Part shown: one piece after another, positions 5,634 to 44,817 of the stretch
Layout: each line of letters starts with the position of its first letter
Numbering within the stretch: position 1 is the stretch's first letter
DNA from: a virus
Lineage: Duplodnaviria > Caudoviricetes
Virus record (IMG/VR): IMGVR_UViG_3300020577_001726
Span: 7,251-71,250 of that record
Length of the DNA: 64,000 nucleotides
Strand: one strand, 5' to 3'
The notes under the pieces: generated by a model
What the model was told of the DNA's origin: nothing
The model's database searches: none
What the model saw: only the letters and a program-made list of their open reading frames with translations
Translations under genes and position numbers: made by a program

Positions 5634-6446
5634 ATGGCTATTTCGACACTTGATGACTACATTGGCTCTGCTAAGCAGATCATACCGATCAGCAAGACCA
5701 CAGCACGTACGACCGTGGCTAACGGTTGGTTCTCGCTTTTCGATATCGCCGGTAACCCCGGTTCTGGTACGCTGGCCGGTTCCAGCACATCTGCTGGCGT
5801 GGTTCCTACGGACGCTACTGCCGGTTGCCCGATCATCTCGTTCTCAACTGGCACGGGATATCTCGCTACCGTGGATTTCGGTAACACAGTCGCGTCGCGG
5901 CTTATGATTGCCGATATCTTATGGAAAGGCGGCGCGTATGCTTACAACTCAGGGACTACGTCCCTCTCGGCGCAACCATCATATTCTTCTCGCGTCCCGG
6001 GCGGTACGGATTACACTGGTACGCAAATTTGGATCGAAGTATCTACCGCTTTTACTTCCGCTACTACTTGGCACGTAGAATGTACATACACGGACCAATC
6101 AGGCAACCCGGGCGCTACAACTGCAACGATGTCGAGCACAACCGCCGCGAACTTAACGCTTGGTCGTATGTACCAGTTGGCGTTAGCTTCTGGCGATACC
6201 GGCGTGCAGAAGATTGAATCTGTGATCGTAACAACAGGTGCCGCAGCGTCTGGGGCATTCAATGTGTTGGTGCTGCGTCCTCTATGGTCAGGCCGCGTGC
6301 CTGCGATTAATAGCGGCGACTGCCATGGACTAGATCGTACCGGCATGCCGGTTGTGTATACAGACTCTGCACTGGCGCTATATGTGAACGCGGATTCTAC
6401 GTCTTCAGGTCTACCGGATGTTACGGTAGAGATCGCGAGTGCTTAA
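5634..6446 (+). CDS. Putative tail/fibre protein, paralogue 1 of 3
   Basis: Start set at ATG 5634 (MAISTL). Shares AQPSYSSRVPGG, QIW.E, YTDQSG, SGD.GVQ, RPLW, GMP and C-terminal SA with the next two ORFs. Confidence 0.65.
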   Translation: MAISTLDDYIGSAKQIIPISKTTARTTVANGWFSLFDIAGNPGSGTLAGSSTSAGVVPTDATAGCPIISFSTGTGYLATVDFGNTVASRLMIADILWKGGAYAYNSGTTSLSAQPSYSSRVPGGTDYTGTQIWIEVSTAFTSATTWHVECTYTDQSGNPGATTATMSSTTAANLTLGRMYQLALASGDTGVQKIESVIVTTGAAASGAFNVLVLRPLWSGRVPAINSGDCHGLDRTGMPVVYTDSALALYVNADSTSSGLPDVTVEIASA

Positions 6447-36419: not shown

Positions 36420-36441
36420 TTCAACATCTCCGTTTTAGAAT

Positions 36442-36603
36442 TGGTGCCGGTTGTACACGTAGTGACCGGCGGCTACTGAGGCTTATCGCGCGTACTGCGA
36501 GGGGATAAAAGATAGATAACTTGGTTTAAGGTCCTCACCCCTAAACCACTAAGAGTTTTCTCCCTTGCTAAGGGCATGAGGTCTTTGTGCCACTGTTACC
36601 GGC
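36442..36603 (-). ncRNA. Candidate structured ncRNA ending in ACCA
   Basis: Intergenic; terminal GCCGGT/ACCGGC-A-CCA with three internal hairpins (see findings). Confidence 0.45.
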
Positions 36604-36715
36604 GTCACCTTGCGGGCGTTAAGGGGCCGCTCTCGTTTCGCACAATGCATTGAGAAGGACTTACAGAAAGGACGCAATCCTCTTCCTGCCTAGGGGCTCA
36701 CGTTATCTAGTTAAG

Positions 36716-37450
36716 TTACTTCCTGCCTCTTGCTGCTGGCTTCGGTGCGCTGACCTTTGTGGTATCTGGTTCAACGAGAAGACGTAAACGTGCTTCGTCC
36801 AGCTTATTTTCAAACACTTCAAACTCGCTCTCAACTAACGGACGCAGCGCTGAGAACTTCAGCGATGGCCAGTCAACAGACTTGTCAAAGCCCACCACAC
36901 TCACCACCTGAAGATGTGCGATGCTTTTCCCGGCAAGCGTCCGAATATAATCATCAAACCCTTTGATGCCTGTCGGGGATACCGTGAGGACCCACGGCGG
37001 CGTATCAGGTGTGGCATCAGCAGGCATGAAGGCAACCACTCTGGTATTTTTACAGGCTTTGCCCTTACCACGCGGACCCGAACCCCACTGATTATTAGGA
37101 CAGGATGCACAGCTTTCCGCCTGTCTGTCTGGTGAGTTAGTAGACGGGACCAACAGCGACGGCTCTGCGTTAATAGCAAAGCAGTCCGGAGGACCCATGT
37201 TATCCTTATCAAAACCATCTTTGTAGAAGACGTTCGCAGAAACGAAATCGACGATTACGCCTTCCAATGGACCGTCCGTTTCTTCTCCCGAAGGTAGACG
37301 AAACTTCTTAAACTGTGTCACTCGGATCTTGTCGCCGCTAGGAGCTTGGATTCGTTGCTGAATCCCTTCCACAATGCGCTGCGCTGCTTCGCTCTTAACG
37401 ATTGGCAGATCACCAACTTGACGGACTGGTACCACTTCATTTTCACTCAT
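36716..37450 (-). CDS. Putative ssDNA-binding/recombination protein with Cys cluster
   Basis: PPDCF...CASCPNNQWGS..GKGKACKN and V.PT..K.F..Y motifs; located in the replication module. Confidence 0.55.
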   Translation of the reverse strand: MSENEVVPVRQVGDLPIVKSEAAQRIVEGIQQRIQAPSGDKIRVTQFKKFRLPSGEETDGPLEGVIVDFVSANVFYKDGFDKDNMGPPDCFAINAEPSLLVPSTNSPDRQAESCASCPNNQWGSGPRGKGKACKNTRVVAFMPADATPDTPPWVLTVSPTGIKGFDDYIRTLAGKSIAHLQVVSVVGFDKSVDWPSLKFSALRPLVESEFEVFENKLDEARLRLLVEPDTTKVSAPKPAARGRK

Positions 37451-37460
37451 GTAAAGCCTT

Positions 37461-37832
37461 TCACGTTTTTAGCATTCTAAGTTTTCTCTGGATGTATGGA
37501 ACGACACCCGGAATTCGGCCGTGCTTTTCAAACAACTCTCGGCAACCGAGAACCGACGGACGACGCTCCAAAAGGTGGAAATATCTATTCGCGTGGATGT
37601 AATCCTCGAATTCCGCCCAGTCTTCCACACTAGGCTTCACAGATTCCGAGATACTGACAGTTGCCGACATGCCAGTTATCTTGGATATACCTTGGGCATC
37701 CATCGACGCCATTAGTTCCATTTCCCGGTCACGAATTTCCTGCTCAACAGCCTCCAGCTGGCTTTCCAGATGGCGCTTGCGTTCTCGCAACAGAAAGAAA
37801 TGATCTACTTGTTTACCGAGTGGATCACTCAT
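37461..37832 (-). CDS. Conserved phage replication-module protein
   Basis: N-terminal coiled coil, then V.DW..F..YI and LLERR.S....ELF....IPGV; ATG 37832. Confidence 0.6.
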   Translation of the reverse strand: MSDPLGKQVDHFFLLRERKRHLESQLEAVEQEIRDREMELMASMDAQGISKITGMSATVSISESVKPSVEDWAEFEDYIHANRYFHLLERRPSVLGCRELFEKHGRIPGVVPYIQRKLRMLKT

Positions 37833-38175
37833 CTTCATCCTCATCGTCGCCGGTTTTAGTGGCGATGCGTTCTTCGATGTGTTCGAATACTTGCCTACCC
37901 CCCGGCTCGGGCTGGGCGTCTTGTGCGATACCTTCAAACGTAGAGGTCATAGCCTCGCCGTATGTCAGCAGCGCAGAAGCAAAGATACCGGGAGAACATG
38001 TACCAATCAGGCTCTTTGCGGCCTCACCAATAGCTGCAATTGCCGCACGTGCGGATTGCTGCTGCTTCTCCGAAATGCCGATAACAATGCCTTCCGAGAG
38101 TACGGCGTTAGTAAGGTCCTCGGTAAACTGGTCAATAGCTCTCTTTTCTTCCTCTTCATCCATTTGTAGCCTCAT
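37825..38175 (-). CDS. Hypothetical acidic protein
   Basis: 116-aa ORF coupled to the polymerase gene. Confidence 0.55.
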   Translation of the reverse strand: MRLQMDEEEEKRAIDQFTEDLTNAVLSEGIVIGISEKQQQSARAAIAAIGEAAKSLIGTCSPGIFASALLTYGEAMTSTFEGIAQDAQPEPGGRQVFEHIEERIATKTGDDEDEDE

Positions 38176-40001
38176 TTTGAATAACAGTAGTCATACCCAC
38201 CTTTGACATCGAGGGGGAGATTTAGTGCCCACGAAGGCGGGGTAACCATGATTTTCTTTCCGAATTCCAACGACTCATCCGCTTCTTCCTCTGGCGCTAG
38301 CCACACGATCTCGTCGTGAGACATCGTCACCACGGGGTAACGCTCTGCGATAGCCAGCATCTGGTTAGCTACGATGATACGAGCTAGTGCTTGCACTACG
38401 TTCTCGGTAACTAGGCCACCATAAATCTTAGTAAACCCGTACCTAGTCTCGTAGGTCATCTCGTCGGGTGCGGGCATGGACAGCCCCGGATAGAGCAGCT
38501 TCAGACCATTAGGAAGACGTATACGACCACCATCTTCTGCTCCATCCCACCCGATACATTTGAATTCTCCGTTCTCACGACGTATCATGCTGACAAGCAC
38601 ACCGTTCATCAGCCGCCAGAGTTGCGTAATTTTAGGGTTCGCTGTTCGATAAATATTAACAATGCTCTCGCATTCGCGGAGTGAAAGTTCGACTTTAGGT
38701 CCATTGACGCCAAGCGCGAGCGTCGCTTTAAGCTTAGCCGCTCCCATGCCATACCCCAGCCCAAGGATGCAAGTCTTCCCAACAAATCGTTGAATTTCTG
38801 TAACCTCTGACTCGGGCACGCCATAAATGCGGCTTGCCATTTTTTTATATACGTCTTCTTTTTTCGCGAAAGCGTCGATGATGTTGTGCTCATCTGCTAG
38901 CCACGCCGTTGTTCGCGCTTCGATTTGTGAGGAGTCAGCAACGACGACAACCATACCTCTAGGAGCTCGTAACGCTCTACGGAGCGAGCCACCTCTGGGT
39001 AAGTTTTGAAGATTGAGCTTATTGCCGCCTGACCATCTCCCTGTATGAGCGCCGTAGTAATTGAGCAGGACTGGCATAGGCATACCGTCTGAGCCCGCGC
39101 TTGAAAATCTCTTCGCACGCGTCTCACCGATAGTCGTTTTAAGACCTTTTCGCGCTTCAAAGAGATCTTTAATCTCTTTATCATCTGATTGTAGGTATAG
39201 CTGGAAAGCTGGGTCGGTCTTTGCGAAGGCATACTTCTCTTCACCCTTCTTGTTCTTCTTCATGGGCACCGGGATGCCCTCTCTACGTAGTACCGCAGCG
39301 AACTTCTCGTTGCTCATTAGATCTTCGCGCGTGATACCACGTTTCTCAAGCCTAGCAAGCAGAGCTTCCTTCGCTGCTTGTTCTTTCTCTATCTCCCCCT
39401 CAACCAGACCCGTGTCCACCAGCAGCTTAGGTTGGCAGAACATCTTCAGCGTCAAATCTATGAGACGAAGTTCTACGTCCGGAAAGAACGGGTACAACGT
39501 CCAAAACACTTTACTACATAGGTCAACGTCCCGTGCGCAGTACTCCATGAGCTGTTCTTGTAGCTCATTCGGGAGTTCTACAACACCTTTTGTCTTCAGC
39601 AGCGTGCCTTTGATCTTACCACCTAGGCCTAGGCGCTCGGCAACGTCGTCTAGCTTGTGGCTCACGTGGTGGCCGAACAAAGCCTTAGACATCCCAAGCG
39701 TATCGATGTAGCCCTTAGGTTCTACGCCGTAATGGTGTGAGAGGATGAACCCGTCGAACGCAGTATTGTGTGCTAGGACGTATTTGTTTTTCCAGTCTAT
39801 GCCGCGTATTACCCTAGGGATTTCGTCCCCTCGGTATACGCGAACAGGGTCATTTCCTAGCCTGATTCCTAAGCAATGCACTTTGAAGCGAGGATCTCTG
39901 ACGTACTCGGACATGTTGATCTTAACGTCCGTGAGGCTATACCCTACGTCATAGAACGTCTCGAAATCCAAGGTAACTATATTGTTTGCGTCTATTTGCA
40001 T
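38172..40001 (-). CDS. DNA polymerase, family A (3'-5' exo plus polymerase)
   Basis: DFET exo I, HN..FD, NLQNLPR, motif A D.SQIEAR, motif B R..GK...LGLGYGMG, motif C HDEIV. Confidence 0.92.
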   Translation of the reverse strand: MQIDANNIVTLDFETFYDVGYSLTDVKINMSEYVRDPRFKVHCLGIRLGNDPVRVYRGDEIPRVIRGIDWKNKYVLAHNTAFDGFILSHHYGVEPKGYIDTLGMSKALFGHHVSHKLDDVAERLGLGGKIKGTLLKTKGVVELPNELQEQLMEYCARDVDLCSKVFWTLYPFFPDVELRLIDLTLKMFCQPKLLVDTGLVEGEIEKEQAAKEALLARLEKRGITREDLMSNEKFAAVLRREGIPVPMKKNKKGEEKYAFAKTDPAFQLYLQSDDKEIKDLFEARKGLKTTIGETRAKRFSSAGSDGMPMPVLLNYYGAHTGRWSGGNKLNLQNLPRGGSLRRALRAPRGMVVVVADSSQIEARTTAWLADEHNIIDAFAKKEDVYKKMASRIYGVPESEVTEIQRFVGKTCILGLGYGMGAAKLKATLALGVNGPKVELSLRECESIVNIYRTANPKITQLWRLMNGVLVSMIRRENGEFKCIGWDGAEDGGRIRLPNGLKLLYPGLSMPAPDEMTYETRYGFTKIYGGLVTENVVQALARIIVANQMLAIAERYPVVTMSHDEIVWLAPEEEADESLEFGKKIMVTPPSWALNLPLDVKGGYDYCYSK

Positions 40002-40347
40002 TCCACCCTCGTTGTTGTCGTTCTTCTGACAACTTCATGAGTGGCATAAATATGTCACCTCCGGTGTCGTTATATGGTGTGCAGAATTCGGTTATATTCG
40101 CTCTTTTTCTTTTCATTAGATGCGAATCTAGTAAGATACCGTAGAACCTACCTCTATTAGCACACCACGTAAGGACCACTTGCTTCGTACCATTAACCAT
40201 TCCAAAATACGCTTTGCCGTCTTCATACTGGCTGCTATGAAGCATGCCCATCATGGCTAGCTGCATGACGTTAATTGGTGGAAGCGGGTCCTCTGTTATT
40301 AGATCCGACAACTGCTTACTTAGTTCCTTGTTTACCGGTAATTTCAT
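39949..40347 (-). CDS. Hypothetical protein
   Basis: 132-aa ORF between helicase and polymerase. Confidence 0.5.
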   Translation of the reverse strand: MKLPVNKELSKQLSDLITEDPLPPINVMQLAMMGMLHSSQYEDGKAYFGMVNGTKQVVLTWCANRGRFYGILLDSHLMKRKRANITEFCTPYNDTGGDIFMPLMKLSEERQQRGWNANRRKQYSYLGFRDVL

Positions 40348-41710
40348 CTTTGTACTCTTGGAGAATAGACAGTAGGTTAGCCTGTCTTACATTCTTGTCC
40401 AACAGCTTGTCATAGACCTTCTCTTCTATGGTCCCAGCAGCTAAGAGGATAATCGTCTCAGTCGGCTCGGTCTGGGAGATACGATAGATACGCTTGTTAC
40501 CCTGTAGGAAGTGCTCTAGGTTGTACGTAGGCGACGTCCAGATTGTACTAGTCCCCCGAGTAAGTGTAAGACCATGTGCTGCGGATTGAGGGTGAGCAAG
40601 TAGTACTTTGTAAAAGCCTTTTTGGAACAAGTTGACGGCTTCAGCGCGTTTTTTATCGGTAACCGACGAATCGATGAGGGCGAAAGTGATCTCCCGGGCT
40701 TGAAACTCTTTGATGAGATTATCCCGCTGATGCTTCCAATTAAAGAAGACGACTGAATGACCACGTTGTTGGACAAGGTCGGCAACAAGCTCGTACCGCC
40801 CCGTGTCAATCTCTGCGTAGTTTCCACTCTCATCGTACACTGCTCCTGAAGCAATCTGCATGAGCTTCGTCATCACAGATGCTGCGTTCACAGCGTTGAT
40901 GACTTGGCGATTGATCGACGTCATTGCAATATCTGCCATCTGCAGGTACTTCTGCTCCTGCGTCTTGGACATATGATACTGCAACGTAAATTGATGGTTC
41001 TCCGGAATGTCTACACAGTCTTCAAACTTATGCCTGATCGTTATGTCTTTAATCAGCGTAGCCACTCCGAGTTCAGCCCCTTCGCGGTCAATCCACTTGA
41101 CCATCTGCGGCATGGGGCCGACTTGCTGTGGCTGGCAGACTTGGGAGCGGAAGGCATAGAAACTAGTGCCTAAGCGCTTTCCATCGTCTATGACAAAACA
41201 CTGATGCCACAGATCCGTAACGGAGTTCGAATCCGGGGTACCAGTTAAACCATATCGGTACTTGAAGTATTTGCGCAGCTTCGACAATGCTTTTGACCGC
41301 TGAGACGTCGCGTGCTTGAAAGCTGATAACTCGTCTATAACTAATGTTTCGAAACCATGGAAGAATGATGGTTTTTGTTTCGCTAGCCAATTTACACCAT
41401 CCGTATTGGTTATATAGACGTCCGCATCCTCTTGAAATGCTTCCTCACGGTTTGAAGCGAAAGCGACGGATACCCGCAGCCACGGCGCGTACTTACGAAA
41501 ATCGTCTTCCCAAGCAGTTCGAAGTAATGACTTCGGCGCGATGACAAGTAACTTACCACCGCCGCGCGCTCGTCTGGCGGCAAAGAGCTCAATCTGTACC
41601 CGGGTCTTCCCTGTTCCCGGATCAGATAAATCAAGTGCTGTAGGAGTTGTTGAGAGAAATTCAACGGAACGCCTTTGATGATCAAATAGAGGGGGGATTT
41701 TGATGGTCAT
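40316..41710 (-). CDS. SNF2-type SF2 DNA helicase
   Basis: PGTGKT, DELS, LTGTP, AAHGLTL and Q...RIYR motifs. Confidence 0.9.
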   Translation of the reverse strand: MTIKIPPLFDHQRRSVEFLSTTPTALDLSDPGTGKTRVQIELFAARRARGGGKLLVIAPKSLLRTAWEDDFRKYAPWLRVSVAFASNREEAFQEDADVYITNTDGVNWLAKQKPSFFHGFETLVIDELSAFKHATSQRSKALSKLRKYFKYRYGLTGTPDSNSVTDLWHQCFVIDDGKRLGTSFYAFRSQVCQPQQVGPMPQMVKWIDREGAELGVATLIKDITIRHKFEDCVDIPENHQFTLQYHMSKTQEQKYLQMADIAMTSINRQVINAVNAASVMTKLMQIASGAVYDESGNYAEIDTGRYELVADLVQQRGHSVVFFNWKHQRDNLIKEFQAREITFALIDSSVTDKKRAEAVNLFQKGFYKVLLAHPQSAAHGLTLTRGTSTIWTSPTYNLEHFLQGNKRIYRISQTEPTETIILLAAGTIEEKVYDKLLDKNVRQANLLSILQEYKDEITGKQGTK

Positions 41711-41933
41711 GGAGCTTTAGTTTCCTAAGCTCCATCTCTTGTACCCGCTGATGCGAGTACAGGACTTCTCGGCAGTGGTTGATTTCTAACTCGGCTCTTG
41801 GGTTGCTTGCAAACGGAGCCATCAAGAGCTTTGATAGTTTAACTGTGTAGAAGTCAACGACCTCTTTGGTATACGGGGGAATTGCCACCTTGCGGTGAAG
41901 CACCCAAGGTGGCAGGCCAAGCTTTTGTTTCAT
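41682..41933 (-). CDS. Hypothetical protein
   Basis: ATG 41933 just after the nuclease stop. Confidence 0.45.
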   Translation of the reverse strand: MKQKLGLPPWVLHRKVAIPPYTKEVVDFYTVKLSKLLMAPFASNPRAELEINHCREVLYSHQRVQEMELRKLKLHDHQNPPSI

Positions 41934-41940
41934 GAGTCTC

Positions 41941-42660
41941 TTATACGCCAACTGTGCAATGCCCCGTACCTTTCGGTCCGTATGGGCACCACTTGCATGA
42001 AAAGATGTTAGGATTCGGAGCGAAATCTTCGCAAGCCGTAACTGCTCCTCCTCTTCGCTCAAACGCACTGAGGAATCTGAGGCCTTGCGCGCGCGTATAG
42101 GTAACACGGGTCATCTCGTCTAGGTCTGTGTACCAGAACTCTACATCCACTTTCTGAATGTCTGGGTAACGTAGGAACGTAGCTAGTTGGTATAGCTGGC
42201 CTTGTTCCATATGCTTAACTTCGTTGCCCTTAAGACGCCCAGTCTTGTAGTCGATTACGACTCCATGGTCGTGGGATAGTCGAACCATTGCGTCGAGTTT
42301 AAGACGCACCCAAGCTCTTGGATCATTCCAGCCGATGGGAAGCCATTGGTTATCCATAGCCCACTCGCCTTCAAGAGAGACTTGCCCGTTGGCGTACATG
42401 TCTCGAAGTTGTTTGAATTCGTCTTCGAACTTTGAGAGTTCTGGAAGAAGTTCAACGCCGCCTTTGACGTAGAGCTCTGCTGCTTCATGGACGCGAGTGC
42501 CTCGATCATTAGCATGTTCAGTTTTTCCGGGTGGTAGTGGTCTGGGTGGTTCAGGAATTCGGTCGATGTACTGCAGCTTTGCGCGCAGCTTGCATTGCTC
42601 AAAGACCGTGAGTCTTGAATAGCTCCATGTCTGGAGCTTGATGGGTATTACCTGATTCAT
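41941..42660 (-). CDS. PD-(D/E)XK exonuclease, Cas4/AddB-like
   Basis: WSYS.L..FEQC, RG..VH, D...IDYKTG and C-terminal CKWCPY...C (1+3 Cys arrangement). Confidence 0.85.
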   Translation of the reverse strand: MNQVIPIKLQTWSYSRLTVFEQCKLRAKLQYIDRIPEPPRPLPPGKTEHANDRGTRVHEAAELYVKGGVELLPELSKFEDEFKQLRDMYANGQVSLEGEWAMDNQWLPIGWNDPRAWVRLKLDAMVRLSHDHGVVIDYKTGRLKGNEVKHMEQGQLYQLATFLRYPDIQKVDVEFWYTDLDEMTRVTYTRAQGLRFLSAFERRGGAVTACEDFAPNPNIFSCKWCPYGPKGTGHCTVGV

Positions 42661-42840
42661 GTGGACCTCTGCGGACTCTATAGGAGCCGCTATTTTAACA
42701 TGAGGCCACGCTAAATTCACTTCTGCTGGTAAAAAAATCGCTGACTGCCTAGGCTTACGTTTGGTACGTAGCTCGGTGGTCTTTCGCACGCTCCCTCCGA
42801 TAGTTTATTCCTCTTTATGGGTCCGTGACACTACGTATTG

Positions 42841-42928
42841 TGGTGCGTCCCGGAGGATTCGAACCTCCACGTGCAGCCACGACTTCGGGGTTACAGCCCG
42901 ATGGTTTATCCAGTTCACCCAAGGACGC
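42841..42928 (-). tRNA. tRNA-Tyr(GTA)
   Basis: Acceptor GCGTCCT/GGGACGC-A-CCA; anticodon arm TCGGG-CTGTAAC-CCCGA; long variable arm; GTTCGAATC. Confidence 0.92.
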
Positions 42929-42938
42929 GTAACAAAAA

Positions 42939-43033
42939 GGCAGGTGGTGCGCTACATCCACATTACGATTCCTCGCTTCAAAGGCAAGGATAGTCGTTTC
43001 TATAGATACTATGCGACTTATGTATCTTCTGCC
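42939..43033 (-). ncRNA. tRNA-like element with TTG loop
   Basis: GGCAG/CTGCC closure, three internal arms, 7-nt loop CTTTGAA; no TTCG T-loop and no CCA. Confidence 0.4.
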
Positions 43034-43165
43034 AAAAAAGGTTAGGATTGGAGGGCCGTTACAGCTTCATTGTCAGTTACCGAGACACCGTCGATTTTAT
43101 CCTGACTACGATTGGGGGCGGTGGTTCTTTCTGATAGTTTTCTCTTATTATATTTATACATATAT

Positions 43166-43257
43166 CGGAGGAAGCGGTGAGATTCGAACTCACGAAACCT
43201 TTTCTGGTTTACAAGCTTTCAAGGCTAGCGCAATAAACCGGACTCTGCCACGCTTCC
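43166..43257 (-). tRNA. tRNA-Ser(TGA)
   Basis: GGAAGCG/CGCTTCC; loop CTTGAAA; long variable arm; T-loop TTCGAAT; ends CCG. Confidence 0.88.
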
Positions 43258-43261
43258 TTTT

Positions 43262-43338
43262 TGGAAGCAGGGATAGGAATCGAACCTACTTTGTCCAGCT
43301 TATGAGGCTGGCGACTATCCAACCGTCTACCCCCTGCT
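43262..43338 (-). tRNA. tRNA with CAT anticodon (Met/Ile2), atypical
   Basis: CCAGC-CTCATAA-GCTGG; T-arm GTAGG-TTCGATT-CCTAT; CCA; two extra G before U8. Confidence 0.8.
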
Positions 43339-43344
43339 ATTATA

Positions 43345-43436
43345 TGGTGGGGTGGCCTCTCACAGCACTTGTGTCTCATGGTAGATTTAGACTACACCCG
43401 CAGGTGAATCAGTCTAACTCCGTGGAGGACCACCCC
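43345..43436 (-). ncRNA. Non-cloverleaf RNA with tRNA-type acceptor stem and CCA
   Basis: GGGGTGG/CCACCCC-A-CCA; internal TTAGACT/AGTCTAA stem; no T-loop. Confidence 0.55.
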
Positions 43437-43445
43437 ATTGACTCT

Positions 43446-43913
43446 TTACTTCCTAGGACCAGATCCGGGAACGAAGCCGGTGTTTCCCGCGTCACCGAAG
43501 TCTTTACCTACGATGCCACTGGTACTAGGCGTACTGCGACCTCTCCGCGTATACTCTGTAATGTATTGCGCGCGGAACCCTCTCTTTATATCAAGAATAC
43601 TAGCATACGAAATATTTGGGAACTGCTTCTGCACCGCCTCCCAATCAGCGATATCTTTCTCATTGGCTAAGAAACCACGATCCAGAGCCGCGTCAGGTTG
43701 GACAGCCATGGGCAAGCCTTGTTCCAAAATCTCGGCCTGCGCCTCGTTCTTATCCACTTCGCGGACTTGCTTGATCTCACGCAGCGCATAAGCGAGCTTA
43801 CCTGCCTCGGTATTCTGATCATACGCACCGCCGGGACCCATATCCGCAGACGACGGGGGCCAAGCAGACTCCGTACCCATACCCATCTTCTTCATAAATT
43901 CGTTCTTATCCAT
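43446..43913 (-). CDS. Hypothetical protein inside the tRNA cluster
   Basis: 155-aa ORF with RBS AGGAG. Confidence 0.6.
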   Translation of the reverse strand: MDKNEFMKKMGMGTESAWPPSSADMGPGGAYDQNTEAGKLAYALREIKQVREVDKNEAQAEILEQGLPMAVQPDAALDRGFLANEKDIADWEAVQKQFPNISYASILDIKRGFRAQYITEYTRRGRSTPSTSGIVGKDFGDAGNTGFVPGSGPRK

Positions 43914-43932
43914 TCCATTCTCCTTTGTTAAC

Positions 43933-44009
43933 TGGCGCGCCCGACAGGATTCGAACCTGTGACCGGTAGCTTAGAAGGCTACTGCTCTAATCCTCTGAGC
44001 TACGGGTGC
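43933..44009 (-). tRNA. tRNA-Arg(TCT)
   Basis: GTAGC-CTTCTAA-GCTAC; canonical D and T arms; CCA. Confidence 0.95.
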
Positions 44010-44238
44010 TGCGTAATTCTTCACCGAAAGCATCGATCTCTTTACAGAGAGCGTCGAAGTCTAGCACATTTTTGAAAATAGAGTCATGGCCGCATGTAGG
44101 GCATCCGCCTTCTTCGTATCCTACGTGTTTAAGTGGAGCTATAATGTGCTGACGCTCACACAACCATCCTTTTAGTTTCTCAAGGATAGGCTTTATTACC
44201 ATCGGCGTGATTAACGGTAAATCATTTTTCTTAGACAT
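43987..44238 (-). CDS. Hypothetical protein (CxxC)
   Basis: 83 aa; 3' end runs into tRNA-Arg. Confidence 0.5.
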   Translation of the reverse strand: MSKKNDLPLITPMVIKPILEKLKGWLCERQHIIAPLKHVGYEEGGCPTCGHDSIFKNVLDFDALCKEIDAFGEELRSTRSSED

Positions 44239-44248
44239 TTTCTATCCT

Positions 44249-44334
44249 TGGTGCGCAAGGCGGGCATCGAACCCGCAAGGGCCAAGCCCGAGGGATTTTA
44301 AGTCCCTTGTGTTTACCAATTTCACCACATGCGC
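44249..44334 (-). tRNA. tRNA-Leu(TAA)
   Basis: AGGGA-CTTAAAA-TCCCT; long variable arm; CCA. Confidence 0.93.
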
Positions 44335-44340
44335 GTTGTA

Positions 44341-44412
44341 CGGCAGGCTGGTAGGGACTCGAACCCCATAGGTCAGGATCTATTCCTGCTAGCATACCAT
44401 TAGCTCCGGCCT
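44341..44412 (-). tRNA. Degenerate/atypical tRNA (anticodon undetermined)
   Basis: T-arm TGGGG-TTCGAGT-CCCTA; acceptor AGGCCGG/CCAGCCT; anticodon arm CAGGA-ATAGA-TCCTG has a 5-nt loop. Confidence 0.55.
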
Positions 44413-44418
44413 GAAACT

Positions 44419-44502
44419 TGGTGCGCTATGAGGGACTTGAACCCCCACGCCGTGAGGCACTAGCTCCTAAGGCTAGCGTGTCTGCCATTCCACCAATAGC
44501 GC
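44419..44502 (-). tRNA. tRNA-Leu(TAG)
   Basis: CTAGC-CTTAGGA-GCTAG; variable arm; CCA. Confidence 0.94.
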
Positions 44503-44503
44503 T

Positions 44504-44580
44504 TGGTAGTAGGAGATGGGCTTGAACCACCGACCAACCCCTTATAAAGAGGCTGCTCTAACCAACTGAGCTATCCTACC
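44504..44580 (-). tRNA. tRNA-Ile(TAT)
   Basis: D-arm TAGCTCAGTTGGTTAGAGCA; GCCTC-TTTATAA-GGGGT; A73-CCA. Confidence 0.88.
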
Positions 44581-44589
44581 TTAAATCTT

Positions 44590-44665
44590 TGGTGCCCCCG
44601 GAAGGATTCGAACCCTCGACCTGCTGATTACAAATCAGCTGCTCTACCGTCTAAGCTACAGAGGC
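44590..44665 (-). tRNA. tRNA-Thr(TGT)
   Basis: GCTGA-TTTGTAA-TCAGC; CCA. Confidence 0.95.
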
Positions 44666-44740
44666 TTTAGTTGTTTATGCCCGGGTCAGTTTCGCTCTCT
44701 TAGACCGTAGTTTCTTTGTACTGCGAGAGAGGGCTTTGAA

Positions 44741-44817
44741 TGGTCAGTGATGTGTGATTCGAACACACGAATTCCTGCTCCCAAAGCAGGCGGCTTAGAC
44801 CACTTGCCTAATCACTG
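44741..44817 (-). tRNA. tRNA-Pro(TGG)
   Basis: CAGTGAT/ATCACTG-A-CCA; CCTGC-TTTGGGA-GCAGG. Confidence 0.93.

Follow-up and report, generated by a model that had tools for sequence, protein, structure and literature searches.

The window analysed here, 64,000 nucleotides (nt) of an uncultivated phage (bases 7251-71250 of a 71,250-base IMG/VR record, estimated to be 98% complete), contains an array of transfer RNA (tRNA) genes in which two further elements, B and C, are probably genes for small tRNA-like RNAs that do not decode and that selection has maintained within the tRNA operon. A first-pass annotation of the same DNA had proposed one panel of four tRNA mimics: B, C, a third element in the array (D) and a hairpin at 36442. 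All four are present and lie on the same strand as the tRNAs, and three sit in slots of the array, B in a slot of 84 nt, C in one of 107 nt and D in a gap of 238 nt. The observation is partly confirmed and its interpretation partly supported: two of the four appear to be selected tRNA-like RNAs, the other two different conserved RNAs. A single panel is not supported, since D has no conserved tRNA-specific feature, the CCA at 36442 is not kept, and the hairpin there belongs to a different RNA. The two elements that carry the main result are:

Element B, 44341..44412, minus strand: predicted non-decoding tRNA-like RNA, with a 6-nt spacer to tRNA-Leu on each side
Element C, 43345..43441, minus strand: leader UCAAU at 43437-43441, G1 at 43436, tail ACCA at 43345-43348

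For comparison we used relatives of the phage, which were reached through exonuclease homologues in a large protein collection and led to contigs of six further lineages. The seven lineages are the window, L148-L152 (with L025 and L145, the same phage), L153, L156, L158, L007 and L013; L154 and L155 are almost identical to the window. Each of these lineages carries a rearranged version of the tRNA array. Identity between the window and L148 is only 49-55% at the fourfold-degenerate sites of three replication genes, and neutral sequence is therefore near saturation.

Element C is a structured RNA conserved in all seven lineages

C (43345-43436 without its leader) folds into a long closing helix, which starts with the seven base pairs (bp) GGGGUGG/CCACCCC and is followed by ACCA. 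The closing helix surrounds a hairpin, UUAGACUG..UAGUCUAA, and a conserved single strand, AUCUACCAUGAGACACAAG. Compared to shuffled sequence the fold reached z -3.5 with flanks and z -4.2 alone. The T arm, D arm and anticodon arm are all absent, and no Rfam family matched C, even at permissive thresholds. The element had been described as an acceptor stem with CCA and nothing else; this stands for the 7-bp helix followed by ACCA and for the lack of tRNA arms, but a CCA end is found in only four of the seven lineages, while the tail is GCCC in the other three.

A covariance model (R1) built from five copies (alignment A1) detected exactly one C copy in each of the seven lineages (65-100 bits), and a single copy in the whole window genome. 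The same model found none in about 170 other loci, among them distant relatives, the tRNA region of T4, six chance matches in bacteria and 119 unrelated metagenome loci with the tRNA-Leu(UAA) motif. In the seven-lineage alignment 87.8% of the cells were paired, versus 34-43% with slid partners, and changes on both sides were seen in 20 of 29 pairs; the closing helix was paired to 95%. All seven copies have the leader UNAAU ahead of G1, AUGA at an internal position and R-C-C in the tail, whose last base is A in four lineages and C in three. The single-stranded stretch AUCUACCAUGAGACACAG is near-identical in five lineages, and identity over C between the window and L148 is 65%.

The position of C within the array varies. 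Three lineages have it just ahead of tRNA-Met and three immediately behind tRNA-Arg; in L007, 49 nt separate it from the preceding tRNA-Arg. In the window it is located 8 nt past the stop codon of the open reading frame (ORF) ORF155 and 7 nt ahead of tRNA-Met; in other lineages it is found between tRNA-Arg and a small ORF.

Element B combines tRNA-like features with a sealed anticodon-like loop

The acceptor strands of B (AGGCCGG/CCAGCCU) form six of seven pairs, with a C.A mismatch at 5:68, and are followed by a discriminator G and a CCG end. The inner parts are a D loop with GG, a hairpin CAGGA-AUAGA-UCCUG and a T arm UGGGG-UUCGAGU-CCCUA. The earlier description of B as a T arm and acceptor with a broken anticodon loop is accurate: the T arm is present, as are six of the seven acceptor pairs, and the loop has 5 nt. 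The 6-nt spacers that flank B resemble the spacing from tRNA to tRNA in the array. The Rfam tRNA family RF00005 (threshold 29 bits) gave no match for B or C with E values up to 10 on 2.4 kb, and B searched alone (91 nt) was still not matched; the L013 copy reached only 13.7 bits, versus tRNA-Sec. ARAGORN rejects B with default settings and calls a low-scoring tRNA with relaxed ones. For the L148 copy, which has the loop AAUUGAU on a 5-bp stem, relaxed ARAGORN calls tRNA-Gln(UUG).

B is present in five of the seven lineages (the window, L148, L013, L156 and L158), always in the slot between tRNA-Leu(UAG) and tRNA-Leu(UAA). In L007 the two tRNA-Leu genes are 8 nt apart without B, in L153 a genuine tRNA-Lys(UUU) (6034-6108) replaces it, and L158 has B plus tRNA-Lys(UUU) (6105-6179). 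The acceptor stems are AGGCCGG/CCAGCCU, AGGUUGG/CCGACCU, GGGGAGA/UCGCCCC, AAGAGGG/CCCUCUU and UCCUCCC/GGGAGGA. These sequences are wholly different among lineages, yet complementary in each, with 6-7 of 7 pairs in all five. The tails are GCCG, GCCG, GCCA, GCCA and CCCA, with NCC in all five; GG in the D region is likewise found in 5/5, and the T arm is intact in four copies and degraded in that of L158. Overall, 81.6% of the cells in the B alignment were paired as against 37-54% with slid partners, with L158 imperfectly aligned.

The anticodon-like hairpin keeps the core GAAUNGAUC, and its 5-nt loop is closed by a Watson-Crick pair. Position 33 is A, leaving no U33, and positions 32 and 38 can pair, which reduces the loop to 5 nt. 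The loop centres seen are AUAGA, AUUGA, AUUAG and GAAUG, and the would-be anticodon triplet reads UAG, UUG, UUA, none and UAG across the lineages. Because the loop is sealed at 5 nt and has a variable centre, B is not expected to decode.

B shows 82% identity between the window and L148, compared with 70-100% for real tRNAs and about 52% for fourfold-degenerate sites. B probably descends from a tRNA. Judged by its sequence, it now appears to be under selection as a tRNA-like RNA that does not decode, and some lineages have lost it. An attP-type tRNA fragment was considered as its origin and rejected, as both acceptor strands are present and covary. The view that B and C are not decayed tRNAs is borne out by helices that covary across five and seven lineages, respectively, and by the conservation of both elements, which is far above that of neutral sites.

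Element D and the 36442 hairpin belong to other conserved RNAs

Element D, 42934..43033, minus strand: putative modular structured RNA; U5 at 42934-42938, hairpin 1 at 43004-43027

D (42939-43033) has a predicted cloverleaf-shaped fold with a four-way junction and U runs on its flanks (z -1.9). In the window its parts are a closing stem (GGCAG/CUGCC), hairpin 1, whose stem covaries freely and whose 12-nt loop (AUAAGUCGCAUA) is conserved, a variable central arm with a CUUUGAA loop, and hairpin 3 (GUGG..CCAC). Copies were found in L148 (two in tandem) and L156, and fragments with the first hairpin in L013, L017 and L018. The copies keep the closing stem (GGCAG/CUGCC changed to GGACG/CGUCC), hairpin 3 as GYGG..CCRC, and a run of 4-21 U. 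D had been taken for an anticodon-like arm. The cloverleaf-shaped fold with its CUUUGAA loop does exist in the window, but the loop is not conserved: one copy has UUUAAA, and two others have inserts of more than 100 nt. No Rfam family matched D at permissive thresholds. Since no tRNA-specific feature is conserved, D is not a tRNA mimic by these comparisons and is better described as a putative small RNA (sRNA) or terminator-like module.

The 12-nt loop has the consensus RUAANNCGNAUA and is specific for the clade; each genome has two or three copies, all of them on the tRNA strand (window 43004-43027; L148 6268, 6541 and 6650; L156 6511 and 6722; L013 2414 and 2823). In five lineages the same loop caps a second conserved hairpin (GCAUG/CAUGC). 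No such hairpin was detected in about 125 unrelated loci, and it is likely to be a protein- or RNA-binding motif. Another hairpin motif, CAAUGAGG..GUARCG..CCCUCCA, is located at 43049-43072 in the window; in six relatives it precedes the exonuclease gene by about 110-130 nt. The window has D and tRNA-Tyr downstream of the motif, an order suggesting that these two were inserted after it.

3' module of intergenic RNA F, 36442..36501, minus strand: hairpin X at 36485-36501 (loop AGUACGC), hairpin Y at 36446-36470 (GCCGGU/ACCGGC)

The fourth element had been proposed as a second acceptor stem with CCA. It lies within RNA F (36420-36715), a 296-nt intergenic region before a DUF6197 gene that is conserved in all seven lineages (alignment A4) and has no Rfam match. 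The last 60 nt of RNA F form two hairpins with 93.9% of cells paired, versus 21-37% when slid, and with compensatory changes in L007. A hairpin followed by ACCA is indeed present in the window, but after the 6 bp of hairpin Y this tail (36442-36445) is found in only three of the seven lineages; the remaining four have ACUU, AAGA or AUUU. We assign the hairpin to a conserved leader, or small RNA, that precedes the DUF6197 gene; it is not an acceptor mimic. Within RNA F there is also an almost perfect palindrome, CTCAATGCATTG. In most lineages it has TCAATGC in common with the leader of C; in the window, that leader is TCAATGG.

Genomic context and distribution of the array

In the window, structural genes occupy the plus strand up to about 30.6 kb. 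An early/replication module on the minus strand follows, with genes for a PD-(D/E)XK exonuclease, an SNF2 helicase and a family A DNA polymerase together with the DUF6197 gene; an Rv2179c-like exonuclease and a deoxynucleoside monophosphate kinase are encoded further downstream. The array lies directly upstream of the exonuclease gene and comprises, in agreement with the earlier count, nine tRNA genes between 42841 and 44817, on which ARAGORN and Rfam agree:

44741..44817, minus strand, tRNA-Pro(UGG) (ARAGORN; Rfam 61.6 bits)
44590..44665, minus strand, tRNA-Thr(UGU) (ARAGORN, Rfam)
44504..44580, minus strand, tRNA-Ile(UAU) (ARAGORN, Rfam)
44419..44502, minus strand, tRNA-Leu(UAG) (ARAGORN, Rfam)
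44249..44334, minus strand, tRNA-Leu(UAA) (ARAGORN, Rfam)
43933..44009, minus strand, tRNA-Arg(UCU) (ARAGORN, Rfam)
43262..43338, minus strand, tRNA-Met(CAU), 7 nt downstream of element C (ARAGORN, Rfam)
43167..43257, minus strand, tRNA-Ser(UGA) (ARAGORN, Rfam)
42841..42928, minus strand, tRNA-Tyr(GUA) (ARAGORN, Rfam)

Small ORFs are interleaved with these genes. One of them, ORF83 (43987-44238), has a GYEEGGCPTCG motif, is conserved in L007, and has its stop codon 22 nt within tRNA-Arg. The tRNA-Ile with UAU anticodon is kept across the clade; the L013 call is 98 nt long and hence carries an insert. The 75-nt gap between tRNA-Pro and tRNA-Thr (44666-44740) was also considered as an element and rejected: its fold is not significant (z -0.6), and only 4 nt remain in L156. 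As exonuclease homologues have about 240 amino acids (aa), the window gene probably starts at ATG 42660 and not at GTG 42789, which would leave about 180 nt of non-coding sequence after tRNA-Tyr. A transfer-messenger RNA identity was discarded, since none was called by ARAGORN or found in the Rfam scan of the array, and no tRNA-repair or tRNA-targeting gene was seen among 20 nearby proteins scanned.

The near search of public phage genomes returned unrelated tRNA matches only and no close relative, and none was found in IMG/VR either. IMG/VR searched with the proteins of ORF229, ORF155 and ORF83 gave no matches, and ORF155 has no relative among 5.8 billion proteins. Five IMG/VR relatives found through the exonuclease (L001-L005, 55-75% identity) have neither the array nor any of the four elements. 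A tRNA-Leu(UAA) pattern matched 120 metagenome loci, just one of which (L025) is a relative, and exact and degenerate DNA patterns for B and C hit nothing beyond ordinary tRNA-Pro and tRNA-Met genes and chance matches. Four independent assemblies of the L148-type phage (L145, L146, L147 and L025) all break at the same point past a 58-aa ORF downstream of tRNA-Leu(UAA), at about 44-70 nt (L145-L147) to about 300 nt (L025), which suggests a genome terminus or a repeat.

Maturation and possible functions of B and C

The anatomy of B and C allows us to propose how they may be made. They would be co-transcribed with the tRNAs and excised by the host enzymes for tRNA maturation. Cleavage by ribonuclease P (RNase P) would separate the conserved U(-1) from G(+1), and the conserved NCC tail would be finished by 3' trimming and the CCA-adding enzyme, so that the acceptor-like helix with its tail may serve as a handle for processing and stability. 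What this handle would carry differs between the two RNAs: in C, the single-stranded AUCUACCAUGAG motif together with the internal hairpin that is conserved; in B, what appears to be a full tRNA elbow (D-loop GG and T loop) and the sealed GAAUNGAUC hairpin. Once freed, the RNAs probably work in trans and bind either a factor recognizing tRNA ends or elbows, or a specific RNA.

Several observations speak against selected RNA genes of this kind. B is absent from L007 and L153 and is therefore dispensable, and its T arm is degraded in L158. Three of the seven C copies end in GCCC rather than RCCA. An antisense target of the conserved loop of C was not found in the phage window: its complement has no exact site there beyond the opposite strand of C itself, sites with up to three mismatches number 54 versus 46 expected, and CAATGAG is not enriched above chance. 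Moreover, the sample comprises only five to seven lineages, and the alignments used for counting pairs were fitted to the model.

B and C could also be decoys that absorb tRNA-attacking effectors or toxins and spare the real tRNAs, C with its acceptor helix and CCA, B with its acceptor, elbow and dead anticodon loop. This idea is plausible, since several immune effectors act on tRNA tails and one of them accepts mimics made of acceptor stem and tail as substrates: Cas12a3 cleaves such synthetic mimics (PMC12851939), and the CCA end is the site of action of toxSAS and MenT toxins. Phage tRNAs are known to counter retron and other defences (PMC11555353). The acceptor helix with its tail is the sole tRNA-like part left in C, and the loop centre of B varies among lineages, as an arms race might produce. 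However, a pure end-decoy would need neither the conserved internal motif of C nor its leader, and the internal motif argues for a more specific interaction. The GCCC tails and the loss of B in two lineages do not fit either, and a stoichiometric decoy would have to exceed the number of the cell's tRNAs. We therefore consider decoys possible but unlikely. More doubtful is the specific proposal that C (acceptor stem and CCA) and B (elbow and acceptor) are made through host tRNA processing to titrate tRNA-inactivating effectors, namely Cas12a3, the toxSAS enzymes CapRel and FaRel2, MenT/AbiEii nucleotidyltransferases and acceptor-stem nucleases. Such RNA mimicry would be a form of counter-defence, and it could also explain RNAC and RNAD of phage T4. 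A decoy role against tRNA-targeting immunity, if true, would represent a new class of RNA-based counter-defence.

If the folds acted only in cis, they would steer RNase P and 3' processing to free the neighbouring tRNAs and small messenger RNAs (ORF83, ORF155), and the excised RNAs would have no function. C is closely flanked by the ORF155 stop and tRNA-Met in the window and by tRNA-Arg and a small ORF in other lineages, and small ORFs are interleaved with the array. Such a signal would need neither a conserved elbow nor a loop motif, however, and the internal sequence of C stays while its context shifts from before tRNA-Met to after tRNA-Arg. The tRNA-Leu pair stands 8 nt apart without B in L007, and a tRNA-Lys fills the slot in L153. 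A role restricted to punctuation is improbable. Decaying tRNA pseudogenes and chance hairpins without function would accommodate the tRNA descent of B (seen in the tRNA-Gln(UUG) call for the L148 copy), its loss in two lineages and degradation in L158, and the lineage-specific ACCA at 36442 and CUUUGAA loop of D, but are very hard to reconcile with compensatory changes in every helix of B and C, identity well above the level of fourfold-degenerate sites, the presence of C in 7/7 lineages, and hairpins of D and F that covary too.

The elements under selection are now delimited: an acceptor-like helix with NCC tail and leader, a tRNA elbow and specific internal loops. What appeared as odd gaps in a tRNA array would become defined RNA genes with ends, motifs and natural variants lacking B, which are open to direct test.

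Comparison with known RNAs

B shares with canonical tRNAs (RF00005) the 7-bp acceptor stem, the D-loop GG, the T arm with UUCGAGU (intact in four of five lineages), the discriminator and the NCC tail; it differs by its sealed 5-nt loop, the lack of U33, a shortened D region and the lack of an RF00005 score. In C only the acceptor-like helix and the RCC tail are tRNA-like. The mascRNA family of tRNA-like small RNAs (RF01684) combines a tRNA-like fold with a non-functional anticodon arm and is made by tRNA-processing enzymes, but it is a eukaryotic family. It gave the best weak Rfam matches of B, through the T arm alone; these scored 13.5-15.1 bits, and as the gathering score is 42.5, B does not belong to the family.

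In the C4 antisense RNA of P1/P7 and the M3 RNA of phi80, a closing helix with a CCA-like tail is the RNase P handle that frees a small regulatory RNA. C differs from C4 antisense RNA in that no complementary target was found for it in the phage window.

The small stable RNAs of the T4 tRNA cluster have been known for about fifty years. The order in T4 is tRNA-Arg, rnaD (species 2, 119 nt), rnaC (species 1, 139 nt). The fold of rnaC has a closing helix and the T arm CCGGG-UUCGAAU-CCCGG, and the 3' end of rnaD is ..GCGCACC. RNAC and RNAD are expressed late in infection (PMC9697503), and their roles are unknown (PMC3014915). B and C are shorter (about 72 and 92 nt here, versus 139 and 119 nt), their folds differ, and a search of the T4 region with R1, filters off, gave no match. 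Their phage is also unrelated to T4, with 71 kb and with family A polymerase, SNF2 helicase and PD-(D/E)XK genes. Nevertheless, in both phages these are non-tRNA, non-decoding genes on the tRNA strand within a phage tRNA cluster. B is like rnaC in its T arm and closing helix, and C is like rnaD in its CACC-type end and in its position: rnaD lies directly after tRNA-Arg, and C is found after tRNA-Arg in four of seven lineages. By this analogy RNAC and RNAD appear to be the closest known counterparts of B and C, the same kind of product without being homologues.

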